32,000 nucleotides of DNA from contig CAZKBG010000001.1 of assembly GCA_964551375.1 (NCBI GenBank), positions 690,001-722,000 on the forward strand. The letters are read 5' to 3'. Shown here in pieces: positions 11,586 to 22,806 of the stretch. The first letter of the stretch is position 1. The number at the start of each line of letters is the position of its first letter. Both the position numbers and the translations under genes were made by a program. Below the pieces are notes generated by a model. That model saw only the letters and a program-made list of their open reading frames with translations. It had not been told where the DNA came from and did not search any database. The DNA is from an uncultured archaeon (GTDB lineage: Archaea; Iainarchaeota; Iainarchaeia; Iainarchaeales; JAAZKV01).

Positions 11586-12074
11586 TCATTTCTTTGAATC
11601 CAAGAATTCTAGCGCTTTTTTTGAAAAAGGAAGCCCTTTTCTTTTAAAAAATGATAAAATTTCTTTTGAAGCCGCCTCGTCGCCAACAGAAACTCTAATT
11701 GAATCATCAATATCAATTACACCTAAAACCAAGGGAAGTTTTTGATAATCAATCTGCTTAATTTTAGAAAAAGATAATGAAAAATTATTCAACCAAGACT
11801 TATATTCAACCCTATCTTCAAAAAGAACCAATTTTGCAAAAAATCGGTCTATCCTTTCATAACCAAACGGCGCCCTATCAATACCCAAATTAGGAATTAA
11901 CAACCCATTTTTACTTATCTGTTCCGGAACTTTGAAGTTTTTAAGACTGTTTTTATGCCCGCGAAAGTTTAGAAAATAAACTGCAATAAATATTATTATT
12001 ATGACAAGAGCGGCATAACCAATTACTTGATTCGCTGGCTCAACAGCCAATAAAACAATTCCAAACATCAGCAT
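11586..12074 (-). CDS. Hypothetical membrane-anchored protein
   Basis: Two N-terminal hydrophobic segments are followed by a ~110-aa soluble domain. I recognise no motif. Confidence 0.5.
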   Translation of the reverse strand: MLMFGIVLLAVEPANQVIGYAALVIIIIFIAVYFLNFRGHKNSLKNFKVPEQISKNGLLIPNLGIDRAPFGYERIDRFFAKLVLFEDRVEYKSWLNNFSLSFSKIKQIDYQKLPLVLGVIDIDDSIRVSVGDEAASKEILSFFKRKGLPFSKKALEFLDSKK

Positions 12075-12103
12075 AACAAAAGCAAATAAGTATAAAAATC
12101 AAC

Positions 12104-12718
12104 CTACTTTCTTTGAGCTTCGATTTTTTTAAACACTTCTTCAACATTTTTCAAAAACCCTTCCAAATCAGGGTTGCTGTCAATGCGATAATCAGCCATC
12201 TCAATACACTTTAGATTCTGCTGCTTAAATAAACCAGGATCGCTAAGCTCCATATCCTCTTTAGCTTTAAACTCTTCAAAACTCGCCACATCTCCATGCT
12301 CATTAGGGTTATTTTTCACGCGATTTACTGTATTTTGATAACGCTTCTTAATATCCGCAAAAGGCTCAAACACTACGCCGCCCATTGACTTTAATGCTGT
12401 AACTTCTGCAGGATTTCTAAGCGAAGTTATTACAAGACGAGGCTTTTTATCAAACAATTTCAACGGAAACTGAATCCAGTAATCATTTCCTTTTTCCTCT
12501 CTAAGCTTATTTCCAAGCGCCCTCATTTCTTCCCTATCTAAATGATTTCTCCCAAGCTTCTTTAATTCAGAACGAATCTCTTCCCCCAAATCAATATGAA
12601 AAAAACCATGCTTTGAAACCAAATAATTTGCAAGAGTATCCTTTCCAGAGCCGTTTAAGCCAACAACCCCGATAAGAATTTTTGAAGGGGCCAAACCTGC
12701 AGAATTAATTTCAACCAT
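12104..12718 (-). CDS. P-loop nucleotide/nucleoside kinase-like protein (CoaE/dNMP-kinase-like)
   Basis: It has a Walker A motif (GVVGLNGSGKDTLANYL). The size (~200 aa) and the LVITSLRNPAEV strand fit small NMP-kinase folds. Substrate is unknown. Confidence 0.6.
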   Translation of the reverse strand: MVEINSAGLAPSKILIGVVGLNGSGKDTLANYLVSKHGFFHIDLGEEIRSELKKLGRNHLDREEMRALGNKLREEKGNDYWIQFPLKLFDKKPRLVITSLRNPAEVTALKSMGGVVFEPFADIKKRYQNTVNRVKNNPNEHGDVASFEEFKAKEDMELSDPGLFKQQNLKCIEMADYRIDSNPDLEGFLKNVEEVFKKIEAQRK

Positions 12719-12801
12719 AGCAAGAAATGCTGATTCAAAAGGATTAAATCACTGCCTAAAGAGAGAAAAAATGCCCTTCTTTGCCATAAAACAAGAAAAA
12801 A

Positions 12802-13335
12802 TTAGAATTCAACTGATTCCCTTGCCAAAATTCCCTTATCAAACGGATGCTTTATTTTCTTTAAATTAGTAACATAATCGCCAAGCGCAAAAATATTTGG
12901 ATGCTCTTTATGAGAGCCTGTGATTACAAGCTCAAGCAAAGCGGGTTTTGATTTAATTACTGAAATAATATCATTTTCCTTTAACAACCCCAAATCAAGA
13001 CAATACAATAATTCATCAGCAACAATCAAATCAAAATCTTTTGAAACAACTGCTGATTTTAAAAAATTCAACGCTTCAATGGCCCCATTAATTGCTTCCT
13101 TTGTTAACGCGCTCTTAATTACCCAATCTTTTGAGCCGAACTGTTTGAAAGAAAAGTCCTTATTTTTCTGAAAAGAAATTATCTCCCCGTACTGGCCGAA
13201 CTGCTCCTGCGGGAATTTCATAAACTGAACTAAAAGAACTTTTTTATTATGCCCCAAAAATCTTGCAATGAGCCCTATGGCTGCAGTAGTCTTTCCTTTG
13301 CCATTGCCAAAATATATATGAACTAATCCAGCCAT
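12802..13335 (-). CDS. cobA: ATP:cob(I)alamin adenosyltransferase (CobA/CobO/BtuR type)
   Basis: The hallmark N-terminus is VHIYFGNGKGKTTAAIGLIARFLGHNKKVLLVQFMK, with DLIVADELLY and VITGSH further on. The ATG at 13335 is preferred; the 219-aa ORF extension would overlap the nrdJ 3' end. Confidence 0.85.
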   Translation of the reverse strand: MAGLVHIYFGNGKGKTTAAIGLIARFLGHNKKVLLVQFMKFPQEQFGQYGEIISFQKNKDFSFKQFGSKDWVIKSALTKEAINGAIEALNFLKSAVVSKDFDLIVADELLYCLDLGLLKENDIISVIKSKPALLELVITGSHKEHPNIFALGDYVTNLKKIKHPFDKGILARESVEF

Positions 13336-13433
13336 AACCAGCACTAACAAATATAAGAAAGCAAAAAAATAAAATAGGAACTCACAGCAAAAAGTGGTTG
13401 GATTAAGCTGGGTTAATTTCTGATGCGGCGATT

Positions 13434-16400
13434 TTAACTGCAGCCGCTTGTAGCGCCGCAATCTTCACAAACCGTGCAAGTACCATTTCTTCGAACTTTC
13501 ATGCTCCCGCACTCTCTGCAAGACTGGCCTGTATAACCCTTTGATTTAGCAATTGAAACATCTTCTGAAGAATTTCCTTGCGGCTTTTTTGGAACTTCAA
13601 AATTCTTTTCCACAAAAGCATTAGTATCAGTCAAGGGGGAGGCTGACAAAGTGGATTGGACTGCAACTTTGAGATTATCCTTCTTTGTTTCCTCAAGAGG
13701 TTTTATGTGAACAAAATCAGTTCTGCCCAAATATTCATATCCAAGCATTCTGAAAATGAAATCAAGAATTGAAGTGCATGATTTTATGCTATCGTGACCC
13801 ACAACCATTCCGCTCGGGTCAAATCTTGTGAAAGTGAATGAGTCTACAAACTCTTCAAGAGGAACTCCGTACTGAAGAGCTTTGCTTATCGCAACTGAGA
13901 AGCATGCTAAGAGGCTTCTATATGCCGCCCCTTCTTTATACATTGAAATAAATAACTCTCCAAGCGTGCCATCATCATATTCTCCGGTTTGGATGTAAAT
14001 CTTGTGCCCGTCAATGCTAATCTCCTGAGTGATTCCTCTTCTTCTCTTTGGCAAACGCTTTCTTTCAACAGTCTGAACAATCGCATTATGCAATTCTTTT
14101 GGACCAACTGTTTCATCAACATCATCATCAGCAGTAACTTTTAGCAGCTCTTCAGCAATATCCCCTGAAACTGCGTTAAGAGGCTGGGATAATTTGCTTC
14201 CGTCTCTGTAAAGCGCATTACTTTTCAGCATGCTTTTATGAGACAAAATATACGCTTTCTCAATATCAGCAATTGTCGCATGAGAAGGCATGTTAATTGT
14301 CTTTGAAATCGCTCCTGAAAGGAAAGGCTGAACTGAAGCCATCATTTTAATATGAGCATCCCAAGCAATGAACCTTGTGCCGTACTTGCCGCACTTATTT
14401 GCGCAATCAAATACTGATAAATCGCCTTTCTTTAAGTGAGGAGCGCCTTCAACAGTCATTGCGCCGCAAACATACTTATTAGTCTCTTCAATCTCTGATT
14501 TTGAAAACCCGAGAGATTTTAGCATATCAAAAGAATTGTCATTTAATTCATTTTCTGTAAATCCCAAACTTTTACAAAACTCTTCGCCGAGAACATATTT
14601 GTTGAAAATAAATTTTATATCAAATGCTGATTTCATTCCTGCTTCAAGCTTTGCAATCTCAAGGTCTGAAAACTTCTTTGATTTTAATTTATCAATAGTA
14701 ATTGCGGGACAATCCACTAAAGTTGCATGCCCTATTAAGTAATGCTCAATTTCCCTAATCTGGGATTCAGAATAACCAAGAGTTTTAAGCGCATAAGGCA
14801 CGCTGCTGTTCACAATTTTAAAATAACCGCCGCCAGCAAGTTTTTTGAATTTAACAAGCGCAAAATCAGGCTCAAGCCCTGTTGTGTCGCAGTCCATCAA
14901 TAATCCAATTGTTCCAGTCGGAGCAAGAAGAGACACCTGCGCATTTCTAAAACCAACTCTTTCACCCTTTGAGAGAGCATTAGTCCAAGCAAATTTTGAT
15001 TTTTCCACAATTTCCTTTGGACACAAATCTGTTTCAAATTTAACAGGCCTTATTGTAAGCCCCTCGTAACCTGCATCCCCTTCTGAAAATGCTGCGCGTT
15101 TATGATTTCTAATAACTTTTAACATATCTTTTTTATTAAGCTCATATTCTTCAAAAGCTCCAAAAAGCTCCGCCATTTCAGCGCTTGTTTCGTAAGAAAC
15201 TCCAGTCATTAGAGAAGTAATTCCTGCCGCAAGAGCCCTCCCTTCATTACTATCATACGCTAAACCAAGAAGCATTAACATGCTCCCAATATTCGCATAG
15301 CCCAAACCAAGCGAGCGGGTTTTATAGGTAACATCCGCAATTTCCTTACTTGGAAACTGCGCCATTGCAACTGAAATTTCTAAAACTATTGTCCAAATAC
15401 GAACTGCGTGAATAAATTCATCAACCAAAAATCTCCCTGATTTTACATCAAGGAATTTTACTAAATTAATTGAAGCTAAATTGCATGCAGAGTTGTCAAG
15501 GAAGAAAAACTCGCTGCAGGGATTACTTGAGCGAATCGGGCCTGACACAGGACAGGTGTGCCATTCATTAATTGTTGAATAAAACATTACTCCTGGATCC
15601 GCGCAGTTCCACGCAGCATAACAAATCTTGTCCCAAAGTTTTCTTGCAGGAAGAGTTTCACAAACAAAACCGTTTGTTCTCCACTTCAAATCCCAATTAG
15701 CATTTGAATCAAGCGCTTTGAAAAAAGAATTTGGAATTACAATCGAGTTATTTGAGTTCTGCCCCGCAACTGTAGCATATGCTTCGCTTTCAAAATGAGT
15801 ATTGTATTCAGTAATATCCATTGAGCATTTACCCTGCTGGGCTAATTGAAGGGCTCTAAAAACATAATTTAACGGAACTCCAAGCGCAATGGCTTTTTTT
15901 ACCGCAAGTTTTAATGGCCCGCTCTTTTCAGGATCATAACACTTTGCATCACATGCAATTTTCATTACTTTATTTATCTGATTAGCGCAAACCTTGCTTC
16001 CTGCAACTAAATCAGCAACCTTCTTTTCTTCTTCCATTTTCCAGTCAATAAATTCCTTTATTTCAGGATGATCAATGTCAAGCGCAACCATTTTAGCAGC
16101 TCTTCTTGTAGTTCCGCCGCTCTTTATGCTCCCCGCAACTGTGTCATAAATTTTTAAATAACTCATTAATCCTGAAGAAACTCCGCCGCCGCTTAACTTC
16201 TCCCCTTTGCCCCTAAGAGTGGAGAAATTTGTCCCTGTTCCTGAACCGTGCTTAAAAAGACGCCCCTCTCTTTTAATTAAATCAAAAATACCGCCTTCTT
16301 CCATTAGCGAATCTTTAACGTACTGAATGAAACAAGCATGCGGCTGAGGCCTTGCGTAAGCGTCGTTACTTAAAACAACTTCTCCTTTCTCAGCATCAAA

Positions 16401-16883
16401 ATAATAATGCCCATCGCTTGCGCCTGAAAAGCCATACATCCAGTGAAGCCCTGTGTTAAACCACTGAGGACTGTTTGGAGCAGCCATTTGAGCAAGAAGC
16501 ATATGCTTTAATTCTTCTTCAAAACTAAGCGCATCATCAGGAGAAGCAAACATATTCTCTTTATCGCCCCAATAACGCCAGCAGCCAGCAATTCTATTAA
16601 CAACCTGCTTAATTGAGCGCTCTCTTCCAGTCGCGGGAGCTCCTTTTTTTGGAACACCATTTGAATCGCACTCGGGAACCTTTGCGCGCTTGAAATACTT
16701 CTGCGCTAAAATATCAGTAGCGGTTTGGGACCAAAAAGTCGGCACTTCAACATCATTCTGCTCAAAAACAACAGAGCCGTCGGGGTTTCTTATGGAGCTT
16801 TTTCTTAATTCAAAAGTAAAAGAGTCAAAAACATTCTGCCCTTTTTTTGTAAAAACCCTATTTACCTTTAGCCCCTTAGCCAT
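13434..16883 (-). CDS. nrdJ: Adenosylcobalamin-dependent class II ribonucleotide reductase (long form)
   Basis: The N-terminus matches the class II RNR N-terminal domain pattern (VNRVFTKKG...FWSQTATDILAQKYF). The active-site region is SNPCSEFFFLDNSACNLASINL. The C-terminal zinc ribbon is CRECGSMKVRRNGTCTVCEDCGATSGCS. Confidence 0.93.
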   Translation of the reverse strand: MAKGLKVNRVFTKKGQNVFDSFTFELRKSSIRNPDGSVVFEQNDVEVPTFWSQTATDILAQKYFKRAKVPECDSNGVPKKGAPATGRERSIKQVVNRIAGCWRYWGDKENMFASPDDALSFEEELKHMLLAQMAAPNSPQWFNTGLHWMYGFSGASDGHYYFDAEKGEVVLSNDAYARPQPHACFIQYVKDSLMEEGGIFDLIKREGRLFKHGSGTGTNFSTLRGKGEKLSGGGVSSGLMSYLKIYDTVAGSIKSGGTTRRAAKMVALDIDHPEIKEFIDWKMEEEKKVADLVAGSKVCANQINKVMKIACDAKCYDPEKSGPLKLAVKKAIALGVPLNYVFRALQLAQQGKCSMDITEYNTHFESEAYATVAGQNSNNSIVIPNSFFKALDSNANWDLKWRTNGFVCETLPARKLWDKICYAAWNCADPGVMFYSTINEWHTCPVSGPIRSSNPCSEFFFLDNSACNLASINLVKFLDVKSGRFLVDEFIHAVRIWTIVLEISVAMAQFPSKEIADVTYKTRSLGLGYANIGSMLMLLGLAYDSNEGRALAAGITSLMTGVSYETSAEMAELFGAFEEYELNKKDMLKVIRNHKRAAFSEGDAGYEGLTIRPVKFETDLCPKEIVEKSKFAWTNALSKGERVGFRNAQVSLLAPTGTIGLLMDCDTTGLEPDFALVKFKKLAGGGYFKIVNSSVPYALKTLGYSESQIREIEHYLIGHATLVDCPAITIDKLKSKKFSDLEIAKLEAGMKSAFDIKFIFNKYVLGEEFCKSLGFTENELNDNSFDMLKSLGFSKSEIEETNKYVCGAMTVEGAPHLKKGDLSVFDCANKCGKYGTRFIAWDAHIKMMASVQPFLSGAISKTINMPSHATIADIEKAYILSHKSMLKSNALYRDGSKLSQPLNAVSGDIAEELLKVTADDDVDETVGPKELHNAIVQTVERKRLPKRRRGITQEISIDGHKIYIQTGEYDDGTLGELFISMYKEGAAYRSLLACFSVAISKALQYGVPLEEFVDSFTFTRFDPSGMVVGHDSIKSCTSILDFIFRMLGYEYLGRTDFVHIKPLEETKKDNLKVAVQSTLSASPLTDTNAFVEKNFEVPKKPQGNSSEDVSIAKSKGYTGQSCRECGSMKVRRNGTCTVCEDCGATSGCS

Positions 16884-16923
16884 TTACCCCACTACCCCCA
16901 AAATCCGCAAGAAATTTGATTAA

Positions 16924-17229
16924 TTATTCAACGATATCTAAAACGCGCCTCTTAAGCTCAAGCTTGTTAGCTGCTCCGCGCACAGTATCGACATGCTCAC
17001 CATTCTTAAAAATCAAAAAAGTAGGGAGACTTGTAATTCCATATCGGTGGGCAAGCTCTTCGGCCTGGGTAACATTAACTTTCAATACCCTTGCTTTGCC
17101 TGATAATTCGGTTGACAACGTGTCAAGATGAGGCATAAACGAAACACAATGAGGACACCATTCAGCCCAGAAATCAACCAATACTACTCCATTACTTACT
17201 TCACTATCAAAACTACTTGAAAAGGACAT
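16924..17229 (-). CDS. trxA: Thioredoxin with a CPHC active site
   Basis: VLVDFWAEWCPHCVSFMP ... ITSLPTFLIFKNG gives a thioredoxin fold of ~100 aa. It lies 40 nt upstream of nrdJ on the same strand. Confidence 0.9.
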   Translation of the reverse strand: MSFSSSFDSEVSNGVVLVDFWAEWCPHCVSFMPHLDTLSTELSGKARVLKVNVTQAEELAHRYGITSLPTFLIFKNGEHVDTVRGAANKLELKRRVLDIVE

Positions 17230-17624
17230 TTTATATCACCCGATTTTAAAAAATTTAAAAACTGAAACATAAAAGATTTTGGAGTTTAAAAAGCTATGTC
17301 CAATAAATGATAAAAATCGGAAAGCTAACAAAAATTAGAAAGTCAAACAAAAAAGATACTAAATCTCACTAATCTTGGACAAAATAGTTAAAAAAGCGAA
17401 TAATTTAAGCCAAAAAAGTTGTTTAATAGAACTGCTAAAGTTGTTCAAACATAAAAATAAAAAAAACAGAAAGAAAGAAATAAAAAAAATAAAAAAATCC
17501 AAAAAATTGTTTAAAAAATAAATTTACCTCGCAGAAAATACAAAAAAACAACAAAAAAATAATATTTCTCCAGAATTTGCAAATAAAATTAGCAAAAACG
17601 CCAAAAAAAGTGAAAAAATAAAAA

Positions 17625-18044
17625 TTAGTTAATGAAAGGCTCTATTTTCTCAAGACGCCACTCAAATTTAACAGGACTATCAACAATATAATCAGCAATT
17701 CCCTTTGAAGCATAGTTATTGTCAACATAAAGCGCCCAATAATGAGTAGAAGGAGCGTCAACGCCGTAAATGGAAGACACCATAACACCAAAATCATACT
17801 CTTTATATTTCATATTCTCGCCAACAAGCGACTTCATAACATCAAAAGCATTTGTGCCAACATTAAAATCCCGCGCTTCGGAAAAAATCAACGTATTAGT
17901 GTCATCAATAACTGAAATTGAAACATTAACAAGATTCTGCGAGTCCAAAACTGCAGGTTGAAAAGAAGTGCAGCCAAAAATAACTGCAAAGAGAGCAAGA
18001 ACTGCCAAAACTAAAACAAATTTTTTATTAAACACTAAAGCCAC
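17625..18044 (-). CDS. DUF4430-like secreted lipoprotein (transcobalamin-beta-domain-like, candidate corrinoid binder)
   Basis: The signal peptide has a lipobox-like VIFGC. The domain pattern VNVSISVID...GTNAFDVMKS...FGVMVSSIYGV...HYWALYVDNNYASKGIADYIV...FEWRL resembles DUF4430. The start is a GTG at 18044 or 18035; both overlap the upstream stop. Confidence 0.6.
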   Translation of the reverse strand: MALVFNKKFVLVLAVLALFAVIFGCTSFQPAVLDSQNLVNVSISVIDDTNTLIFSEARDFNVGTNAFDVMKSLVGENMKYKEYDFGVMVSSIYGVDAPSTHYWALYVDNNYASKGIADYIVDSPVKFEWRLEKIEPFIN

Positions 18045-18586
18045 CTTTCAAATCCAAGTATTAGCTGTCGCAAAGGCATAAAAATCTGGTACTTGCTTAA
18101 CCCCTTTAACACTTCAATACGCACATCCTTATCCAAAAGGAACGCAAATAGAAGAGAATATGTTGAAGTGCTTGCTAAATGGTAAAGAGTAAACGGAATC
18201 TGCCCCATAATTGTCACAATCAAATTCTGCTTGAACATAAAAGTGCTCATCATAGGACCCGTAATTGCATCAAAAATCAAAACCCCTGCAATACTTGCAA
18301 ATAAATAATGCTTAATTGACACATGCCTCATTTTTGAGAAAACAATGCCCAAAACAAGAATCACAAACGCATACGTTAACGAAGTCACAAGCGTCCAAAT
18401 CCCAACTTTTCCCGTAATAATATCAAAAGAAACCATTGCAATTATCGCAAAGAGAATCCCCGACCACAAATTCTTTCTTGCAGAAGGAAGGGCTACTCCT
18501 AGAACTGGATCATTATTTGGAAATAATCTAAAAAAACGCACGCCGTTCGCAAACAAGAGCCTCAAAACAAAACTAAGTAAAGCCAT
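18035..18586 (-). CDS. Small polytopic membrane protein, possible ECF-type S-component-like substrate-capture protein
   Basis: 183 aa with about six hydrophobic helices. Its end overlaps the start of the DUF4430-like gene, suggesting translational coupling. I recognise no catalytic motif. Confidence 0.45.
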   Translation of the reverse strand: MALLSFVLRLLFANGVRFFRLFPNNDPVLGVALPSARKNLWSGILFAIIAMVSFDIITGKVGIWTLVTSLTYAFVILVLGIVFSKMRHVSIKHYLFASIAGVLIFDAITGPMMSTFMFKQNLIVTIMGQIPFTLYHLASTSTYSLLFAFLLDKDVRIEVLKGLSKYQIFMPLRQLILGFERWL

Positions 18587-21686: not shown

Positions 21687-22160
21687 ATGGAACTCGAAAT
21701 AATAGCTGCGCTTACAAACACACACATAATAGGACAAAACGGGAGACTGCCTTGGAATATCCCCGCAGATATGAAGCATTTTAAGGAAATCACAACCGGA
21801 ACCGCAGTAATAATGGGAAAAAATACTTGGGAATCACTCCCTGAAAAATTTAAACCCCTGCCAAATAGAGTAAATATTGTAATTTCAAGAACGCTACATG
21901 AGGCAAAAGGAGCGACAATAGCAAGAACACTTGAAGAAGGAGTATATTTGGCGCACAAAGCAGGAAAAAGAGCAATAATTATTGGAGGAGCACAGCTTTA
22001 CACAAGCGCGCTACCCCTAGCAAATGTGCTCCACTTATCATGGATAAAAAAAGAATATCCTGGCGACACTTATTTTCCTAAATTTAACGAAAACGAATGG
22101 AATATTACTGAAGAAAAGGACTTTGGGGAATTTATTTACAAAAAATATGTTAGAAAGTAA
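21687..22160 (+). CDS. folA: Dihydrofolate reductase
   Basis: IIAALTNTHIIGQNGRLPWNIPADMKHFKEITTGTAVIMGKNTWESLP...PLPNRVNIVISRT...IIIGGAQLY matches DHFR. Confidence 0.9.
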   Translation: MELEIIAALTNTHIIGQNGRLPWNIPADMKHFKEITTGTAVIMGKNTWESLPEKFKPLPNRVNIVISRTLHEAKGATIARTLEEGVYLAHKAGKRAIIIGGAQLYTSALPLANVLHLSWIKKEYPGDTYFPKFNENEWNITEEKDFGEFIYKKYVRK

Positions 22161-22185
22161 AACTTGCGTGCGCGAGAGGATTTTT

Positions 22186-22806
22186 ATGAAAACAAAGGCC
22201 TTTGTGATAACTGATAAATGCGAAGAAAATTGCGCTTACTGCTTTCAAGCGCCACAAAAAGATATTACCCTTGAGGAATTTAAAGAACTGCTGAAAAAAG
22301 AACAAACTGAAAATGATGAACTGACTAAAATTGTCATTACAGGAGGAAATCCTGAGCTGAACCCAAATTTTTGGAAAATCTGCGAAACCGTGAAAAGCGC
22401 GGGATTGAAATTAAAAATACATTCAAATTATTTTAATAAAAAAACATGGGAAAAATATGTTAAAATCGCGGATGAACTCTCCATACCAATTGATTCATTA
22501 GACAAAGCATCGCTCCGCGGGGAAGAAAATACAAAAAAAATGCTTGCCGCATTTGATTACTTTTTAGGAAAAATACAAATACAAGTCCACACAGTTGTTG
22601 GGAAAAACAACGCCGCGGAACTTGGCAAAATAAAGGAATTTCTTGAAAAAAAAGGGTTTTTTGAAAAAAACAGCTGGAAGATATTCCGTCTTATTGAAAC
22701 TTCAAGGACAAGGGGATTAAAAATTGCCAACAAAAAATGGGCAAAAATAACCGCAAATTACAAAGGCAAAAATACCCACTTTGTTGAAAATGTCATGGAT
22801 TACTAA
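22186..22806 (+). CDS. Small radical SAM domain protein of unknown function
   Basis: It has a CxxxCxxC cluster motif (CEENCAYC) near the N-terminus and an ITGGNPELN (GGE-like) motif. A GAGG lies 8 nt upstream of the ATG at 22186. An alternative ATG at 22147 would overlap folA by 14 nt. Confidence 0.7.
   Translation: MKTKAFVITDKCEENCAYCFQAPQKDITLEEFKELLKKEQTENDELTKIVITGGNPELNPNFWKICETVKSAGLKLKIHSNYFNKKTWEKYVKIADELSIPIDSLDKASLRGEENTKKMLAAFDYFLGKIQIQVHTVVGKNNAAELGKIKEFLEKKGFFEKNSWKIFRLIETSRTRGLKIANKKWAKITANYKGKNTHFVENVMDY

Follow-up and report, generated by a model that had tools for sequence, protein, structure and literature searches.

We describe here a string of minus-strand genes, located at positions 11586 to 18586 of a 32,000-nucleotide stretch of archaeal DNA (the window), that appears to be organized around the uptake of vitamin B12 and its use by a class II ribonucleotide reductase (RNR). 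The window spans positions 690,001 to 722,000 of contig CAZKBG010000001.1 in assembly GCA_964551375.1, from an uncultured member of the Iainarchaeota. This source genome (G000; here G denotes genomes and L loci) is a metagenome-assembled genome (MAG) of 1.09 Mb in 10 contigs that is 93% complete, and all whole-genome absences reported below rest on it. DPANN archaea, to which this organism belongs, combine minimal genomes with a presumed dependence on other cells. The archaeal character of the window is visible in a signal recognition particle (SRP) RNA of the archaeal type, found by an Rfam search, and in a replication factor A (RPA) gene, found with hidden Markov models (HMMs). Proteins of the window were annotated with the HMMs of Pfam and NCBIfam, and the kinase and the 162-residue protein listed below were also compared with PHROGs. 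An earlier note on this DNA had claimed eight minus-strand genes; all are present where it placed them, and the names it gave are backed by the HMMs. The features of the string are as follows.

18035..18586, minus strand: CbrT-like polytopic membrane protein of the energy-coupling factor (ECF) S-component type, 183 residues, related to DUF6580; proposed corrinoid translocator
17625..18044, minus strand: DUF4430 lipoprotein-like protein, 139 residues (PF14478, 43.1 bits, cut-off 23.8); proposed extracellular corrinoid binder
17230..17624, minus strand: 395-bp spacer between the DUF4430 and thioredoxin genes, T-rich on the coding strand (read directly)
16924..17229, minus strand: thioredoxin, 101 residues, active site WCPHC near residue 25 (PF00085, 92.3 bits); proposed reductant of NrdJ
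13434..16883, minus strand: NrdJ, predicted adenosylcobalamin-dependent class II RNR, 1149 residues (TIGR02504, 553.8 bits, cut-off 399.95)
13336..13433, minus strand: 98-bp spacer between nrdJ and cobA, with T-runs and TTATAT some 15 nt before the cobA ATG (read directly)
12802..13335, minus strand: predicted CobA/BtuR-type ATP:cob(I)alamin adenosyltransferase, 177 residues (PF02572, 166 bits, cut-off 25.7)
12104..12718, minus strand: P-loop (deoxy)nucleotide kinase, 204 residues (phrog_139, deoxynucleoside monophosphate (dNMP) kinase, E 1.3e-17)
11586..12074, minus strand: 162-residue protein with an N-terminal hydrophobic segment, a lineage-specific neighbour

Five adjacent genes of this string, those for the membrane protein, the DUF4430 protein, thioredoxin, NrdJ and CobA, very probably constitute a self-contained unit that would scavenge vitamin B12 and use it for the production of DNA precursors. 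The enzyme at its center is a class II RNR of the B12 type, as the earlier note had proposed: besides TIGR02504, it matches NF005122 (1128.8 bits, cut-off 859), PF08471 (Ribonuc_red_2_N) and a TSCPD domain, and the closest solved structure is 7B9Q, entitled 'vitamin B12-dependent ribonucleotide reductase' (1114 bits). Its C-terminal tail is rich in cysteine (CRECG...CTVCEDCG...GCS). The product of 12802..13335 likewise proves to be a CobA-type adenosyltransferase by its PF02572 match and by its P-loop, GNGKGKTTAA, which aligns with that of the Salmonella CobA structures 4HUT and 1G5R. The family assignments of both CobA and NrdJ are thus shown by these comparisons, and their activities are predicted. 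The thioredoxin, which scores 95.9 bits on TIGR01068, just under the cut-off of 96.8, is encoded directly upstream of nrdJ not only in the window but also in L004, L009, L010, L034, L048, G047, G118, G147 and G155. Its WCPHC active site, with a DsbA-like dipeptide, recurs in the L009 and L010 orthologues; in L034 and L048, the thioredoxin linked to nrdJ shows the usual WCGPC instead. At other places in the genome there are two full-length thioredoxin-reductase-like genes.

As a side observation on NrdJ, the corresponding open reading frames (ORFs) of G047 (L097 3764-8398), G118 (L098 10869-15446) and several genomes of family f5 are 1500-1900 residues long, and their HMM match is split into in-frame pieces, which suggests inteins; the window's NrdJ, at 1149 residues, has none.

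The identity of the two proteins at the head of the string became apparent at the level of profiles. Searches of the PDB with the single sequences of the membrane protein and the lipoprotein gave chance matches only; the informative matches came from two profiles, A1, an alignment of 29 of 38 collected relatives of the membrane protein, and A2, built from 22 sequences of the DUF4430 protein family. The sole PDB match of A1 at E<=10 was 6FNP_A (E 4.9e-6), the 182-residue membrane subunit (CbrT) of ECF-CbrT, the vitamin B12 transporter of Lactobacillus delbrueckii (PMC5997447). Among the 29 relatives, DUF6580 was found at E<=0.1 in 21 and PF12822, the family on which CbrT itself scores, in three; a literature search on DUF6580 found no paper. 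The AlphaFold2 (AF2) model of the membrane protein (predicted local distance difference test, pLDDT, 93.5) has the six-helix fold of ECF S-components, and its top Foldseek matches were all S-components (FolT, ThiT, RibU, BioY and PanT), with probabilities up to 1.00 and template modelling (TM) scores of 0.56-0.64.

The DUF4430 protein carries a signal peptide that ends in FGC, a lipobox-like motif. Profile A2 retrieved the transcobalamin beta domain 5NO0 first (E 3.4e-5), followed by transcobalamin, haptocorrin and intrinsic factor, and the AF2 model (pLDDT 89) superimposed on 5NO0 with a TMt of 0.78 and a root-mean-square deviation (rmsd) of 2.6 A; the top 19 Foldseek matches of this model consisted entirely of B12 carriers and 3U7Z, a DUF4430 structure from bacteria. 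By profile and model, therefore, the protein is homologous to the beta domain of transcobalamin and intrinsic factor, and we propose that it binds a corrinoid. Its ORF as listed overlaps the stop codon of the membrane-protein gene (TAG, 18037-18035). An in-frame GTG at 18035, which shares a base with that TAG and has AGGTGG five nucleotides upstream, is the probable true start, and the listed start would be corrected accordingly.

Relatives of this pair occur in other arrangements as well. A secreted protein of about 515 residues stands beside the membrane/DUF4430 pair in several Iainarchaeota (L012 11600-13170, L022 11575-13122, L021, L023, L028 and L033) and combines DUF4430 with a prenyltransferase-like alpha/alpha-toroid, that is, a two-domain transcobalamin-like architecture in archaea. 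In another Iainarchaeota family, a more distant membrane protein (265-residue ORF, E 4e-8 to A1) is encoded directly after nrdJ-cobA (G060:C4:68171-72561), which hints at a second, related uptake family.

The gene content of the genome as a whole fits this arrangement. NrdJ is the only RNR found in it: the whole-genome search returned no NrdD, no class I small (R2) subunit and no second RNR alpha subunit, so that the predicted absence of class I and class III enzymes came out as expected. The same holds for the prediction of an organism that scavenges B12 and makes no corrin of its own, in that four markers of the cobamide pathway, CbiB, CobS, a B12-binding domain and PduO (PF01923), were not found genome-wide. 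Furthermore, the search detected neither EcfT (PF02361) nor a BtuC-type (FecCD) permease. Because of these genome-wide gene absences, the organism would have to import a complete cobamide, of which NrdJ is the only recognisable user. A literature search on Iainarchaeota with cobalamin, or on DPANN with RNR and cobalamin, found nothing relevant by title or abstract.

Comparison with other genomes shows that at least seven further species (L004, L009, L010, G047, G118, G147 and G155) have the same gene order, as the earlier note had anticipated. The locus of L004, the closest metagenomic relative, whose membrane protein is 72% identical, repeats the sequence of membrane gene, DUF4430, a spacer of about 377 bp, trx, nrdJ and cobA, and those of L009 and L010, both species representatives, have the full string including the kinase. 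In L004 itself, an IS200/IS605-type Y1 transposase (14031-14447) lies directly after cobA, at the place that the kinase takes in the window.

For a wider view, we read the neighbourhoods around the membrane-protein gene in the 80 species loci that encode this family. DUF4430 stands directly downstream of it in 22 of the 80, and within 10 kb are found NrdJ (15 loci), CobA (9), a B12-binding radical SAM protein (8) and, in Bipolaricaulota, Fer4_16 (6); at least one of these five neighbours is present in 46 of the 80 loci. The Fer4_16 neighbours may add a further, predicted class of B12 enzyme. In addition, an AdoCbl-II riboswitch lies immediately upstream of the membrane gene in the bacterial locus L076, the sole direct case among 21 bacterial loci checked. 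That the substrate would be a corrinoid is argued mainly from the variety of these neighbours, which comprise several unrelated B12-linked items, namely NrdJ, CobA, the B12-binding radical SAM protein and a B12 riboswitch. The "corrinoid capture pair" of the earlier note is thus backed by its homologies, with CbrT for the one protein and the transcobalamin beta domain for the other, as well as by these neighbourhoods across 80 species.

Evidence that the five genes belong together comes from the window's own family, of which 31 genomes were surveyed by locating RPA first and mapping the regions by homology. They share a backbone of GGGPS, RPA, a dCMP-deaminase-like gene (an addition in relatives), the kinase, a slot, glyA, thyA, folA and RadA, and the slot is found in three states. 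It holds nrdG-nrdD in 21 of the 31 genomes (checked in G078, with 1042 bits for NrdD and 190 bits for NrdG2), cobA-nrdJ-trx-DUF4430-cbrT-like in five (G000, G047, G118, G147 and G155), and nothing in three (G151 (L110), G035 (L112) and G074 (L108)); in the remaining two the contig ends before the slot. In G035 and G074 neither NrdJ nor NrdD was matched genome-wide, G151 being outside those searches; organisms of this kind may live on imported deoxynucleotides, unless the MAGs happen to lack the gene. In a maximum-likelihood tree of RPA, the genomes that carry the cassette fall in five scattered positions: the NrdJ label needs 5 changes, of which well-supported branches force at least 4, and its clustering does not exceed that of shuffled labels. 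Either repeated replacement or an ancestral polymorphism followed by differential loss could have produced this pattern. Because the five genes are gained and lost together at the slot while the kinase stays, there is strong evidence that they function together, and the functional unit is therefore these five. Of the gene string that had been read as a B12 unit, the CbrT-like, DUF4430, trx, nrdJ and cobA genes are accordingly retained, and the kinase and the 162-residue protein drop out.

For the phylum at large, five models were searched in 151 Iainarchaeota genomes and the results cross-tabulated. CobA occurs in 57 genomes, all 57 of which have NrdJ, and a comparison of coordinates by hand shows that, in 27 of them, no more than about 3 kb separate cobA from nrdJ. 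NrdJ was above its cut-off in 69 genomes and NrdD in 74, and no genome had both, with sub-threshold RNR-alpha-like matches in seven of the NrdD genomes. Strong CbrT-like matches came from 45 genomes, of which 27 have NrdJ. Two minor observations concern the RNR models themselves. In seven of the 151 genomes neither model matched; and in many relatives, for example at G030:C1:483447-485230 and G078:C1:237784-239578, a stop codon closes the main nrdD ORF early, and the glycyl-radical end of the NrdD model (positions ~525-562, its last approximately 40 residues) follows in a short ORF of its own.

Overall, the following sequence of events can be proposed. The membrane-anchored DUF4430 protein would bind a complete corrinoid outside the cell and pass it to the CbrT-like protein, through which it would cross the membrane, with no apparent help from an ECF energising module. 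CobA and ATP would then adenosylate the reduced corrinoid, and the resulting adenosylcobalamin would be used by NrdJ in the reduction of ribonucleotides. Finally, the co-encoded thioredoxin would re-reduce NrdJ by way of its cysteine-rich tail, itself being fed by a thioredoxin reductase encoded elsewhere. Such a supply chain, from cofactor to deoxynucleoside triphosphates (dNTPs), had been the central proposal of the earlier note, and it is supported here on each point on which it might have failed: the adenosyltransferase is of the CobA type, the RNR is of the B12 type, and the gene order recurs in relatives.

The logic of this unit is known from Lactobacillus, and a nrdJ-cbrS-cbrT-pduO cluster of Lactobacillales was reportedly predicted by Rodionov et al. 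in 2009. In Lactobacillus delbrueckii, CbrT sits in such a cluster, and B12 transport by ECF-CbrT has been shown experimentally (PMC5997447; Santos et al., 2018). In our data, the Lactobacillus helveticus locus L089 encodes a class II RNR, a 136-residue DUF4430 protein, CbrT and a PduO-type adenosyltransferase in a row, and because this order matches nrdJ-cbrS-cbrT-pduO, cbrS can be taken to encode the DUF4430 protein. The cluster of Lactobacillales and that of the window thus have four roles side by side, namely class II RNR, DUF4430 protein, S-component and corrinoid adenosyltransferase; both hosts are B12 auxotrophs, and the adjacency of DUF4430 and CbrT is shared, with overlapping genes in the window. 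However, there are also significant differences. The host of the window is an archaeon, its adenosyltransferase is of the CobA rather than the PduO type, and its RNR is long, with a cysteine-rich tail and a dedicated thioredoxin, whereas the Lactobacillus RNR has 744 residues. The order in the window is (cbrT-like, DUF4430), spacer, (trx, nrdJ, cobA), and its membrane protein is nearer to DUF6580 than to PF12822. Furthermore, no EcfT was found in the genome of the window or in its family, the window has no riboswitch, and its cassette exchanges with a class III RNR in the same slot. The locus is therefore an archaeal variant of a known arrangement, and two points in it deserve attention, the apparent ECF-free import and the same-slot alternation with a class III RNR.

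Two other systems invite comparison. BtuM of Thiobacillus denitrificans is a solitary small six-helix B12 transporter with the S-component fold that works without an ECF module, uses a cysteine to bind cobalt, and decyanates B12 (PMC6072759; Rempel et al., 2018). Like BtuM, the protein of the window has an S-component fold, comes from an organism with no detectable ECF module and would, as we propose, transport cobalamin alone, but no sequence relationship between the two was found (A1 against the PDB at E<=10 gave only 6FNP_A), and BtuM is without a DUF4430 partner. The DUF4430 protein, for its part, has the beta-domain fold and a profile-level similarity in common with transcobalamin, intrinsic factor and haptocorrin; structures of the isolated human beta domain exist, judging by their PDB titles, in the apo (5NO0) and the cyanocobalamin-bound form (5NP4). 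Unlike transcobalamin, the protein of the window is without the alpha (alpha/alpha-toroid) domain and would be anchored in the membrane rather than secreted.

The apparent absence of an ECF module matters because solitary Lactobacillus CbrT, expressed without its ECF module, did not give B12-dependent growth in Escherichia coli (PMC5997447), whereas BtuM works alone; ECF-independent transport is for that reason not a given. The CbrT-like protein could instead be an ordinary S-component that requires an ECF module (EcfT plus EcfA/A') too divergent to be detected or absent from the assembly. The dependence of CbrT, its closest characterised relative, on such a module (PMC5997447) speaks for this alternative, as do the incompleteness of the genome and the case of family f13, in which all 13 genomes have EcfT and 11 of the 13 also have the CbrT-like gene. 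We nevertheless consider it unlikely. EcfT was not found in G000, nor in 25 genomes of its family, nor in 20 genomes of family f5, 17 of which carry the CbrT-like gene; the same model did detect the divergent archaeal EcfT of f13, and the nine genomes with EcfT among the 45 with a strong CbrT-like match all belong to that family. Moreover, the three single-domain ATP-binding cassette (ABC) ATPases of G000 all stand beside ABC-2 or FtsX-type permeases, and solitary transporters of the S-component type have precedents in BtuM and BioY (PMC6072759). More radically, the membrane/DUF4430 pair might import something other than a corrinoid, its position merely reflecting a dense neighbourhood of DNA-precursor genes. 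The window is indeed packed with genes for DNA precursors and DNA transactions, conserved in the family, between 9608 and 24579 (RPA, the kinase, the RNR slot, NUDIX, glyA, thyA, folA and RadA), 34 of the 80 loci have no B12-related neighbour, and an S-component fold does not reveal its substrate. This explanation is very improbable in our judgement, in view of the occurrence of the pair or of the membrane gene beside NrdJ, B12-binding radical SAM proteins and CobA in DPANN archaea and several bacterial phyla, the homology of DUF4430 to the B12-binding beta domain of transcobalamin, the AdoCbl-II riboswitch of L076, and the presence of the pair at the family slot only when NrdJ and CobA are present.

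Several further points weigh against the reading of the five genes as a B12 unit and against ECF-free import. Every role in the unit rests on homology and gene context, and the genome-wide absences come from a MAG that is 93% complete. The link of the membrane protein to CbrT holds at the profile level only, and its score on DUF6580 (PF20221), 22.5 bits, is below the gathering cut-off of 27. CobA scores 132.8 bits on TIGR00708, below the equivalog cut-off of 167.75, and no corrinoid reductant for it was identified. In the phylum sample, the CbrT-like gene occurs without NrdJ in 18 genomes (17 of them with NrdD), and 36 genomes have NrdJ and CobA without a strong CbrT-like gene; other uptake routes therefore exist. 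The count of switches at the slot, finally, comes from the tree of a single gene that flanks it.

With these points in mind, we tentatively put forward a joint proposal, the odds of which we place slightly on the unfavourable side: that the CbrT-like and DUF4430 proteins form a two-part, ECF-free corrinoid importer, and that the cassette acts as an exchangeable switch of RNR class against nrdD-nrdG. If the former is true, this importer would be the main entry route of B12 in many DPANN archaea and candidate-phyla bacteria. If the latter is true, the cassette would have been swapped repeatedly with nrdD-nrdG at a fixed slot, likely by recombination through the kinase and glyA flanks, and sister lineages would trade a strictly anaerobic, cofactor-free synthesis of dNTPs for an oxygen-tolerant route that depends on the B12 of a neighbour or host. 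The locus indicates which B12-related functions a minimal-genome DPANN archaeon keeps, and it points to a candidate B12 importer of a family as yet uncharacterised, composed of a DUF6580-like protein and a transcobalamin-beta-like binder and apparently without an ECF motor. In addition, the same-slot alternation with nrdD-nrdG constitutes a clean natural experiment, and it suggests that the RNR class in these lineages follows B12 availability and oxygen exposure.

The remaining genes of the string have other affiliations. The kinase, which matches a phage family of dNMP kinases (phrog_139) and whose DNMK and PRK08356 matches are weak, was rejected as a member of the B12 chain, as it borders the RNR slot in nrdD-type, nrdJ-type and empty-slot relatives alike; its role is probably in the supply of dNTPs, irrespective of the RNR class. 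For the 162-residue protein, no match was found in Pfam, NCBIfam or PHROGs, and a homologue was found only in L009. A small radical-SAM gene after folA (22123-22806) was considered as a remnant of nrdG and dismissed, with an NrdG2 score of 34.6 bits against a cut-off of 131, the true nrdG of relatives reaching 190 bits; its matches are generic, for example to viperin-like proteins at 51 bits, far below the cut-off.

As for regulation, the 395-bp spacer and the T-rich, TATA-like 98-bp spacer noted earlier are both real and T-rich on the coding strand. The distal part of the longer one resembles archaeal poly-T termination signals. Its proximal approximately 190 nt (window 17230-17420), upstream of trx, are conserved in an alignment of four otherwise diverged species and hold an inverted pair, TTGTCCAA (17382-17375) and TTGGACA (17303-17297), a TATA-like TTTTTAAA (17292-17285) some 60 nt before the trx ATG, and the Shine-Dalgarno (SD) sequence GGGTGAT (17241-17235). 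This block may be a binding region for a regulator, and we infer promoter and terminator roles within the spacer. A cobalamin riboswitch or other Rfam RNA was not found around the cassette, including the 395-bp spacer, even at E<=1, and the window-wide Rfam search at gathering scores gave no riboswitch. Because the spacer between nrdJ and cobA is poorly conserved between species, we claim no regulatory element in it; that there is a promoter inside the string at this point, or that the cobA mRNA is leaderless, is conjecture. Judged by the two T-rich spacers, it is plausible that the string comprises more than one transcription unit.

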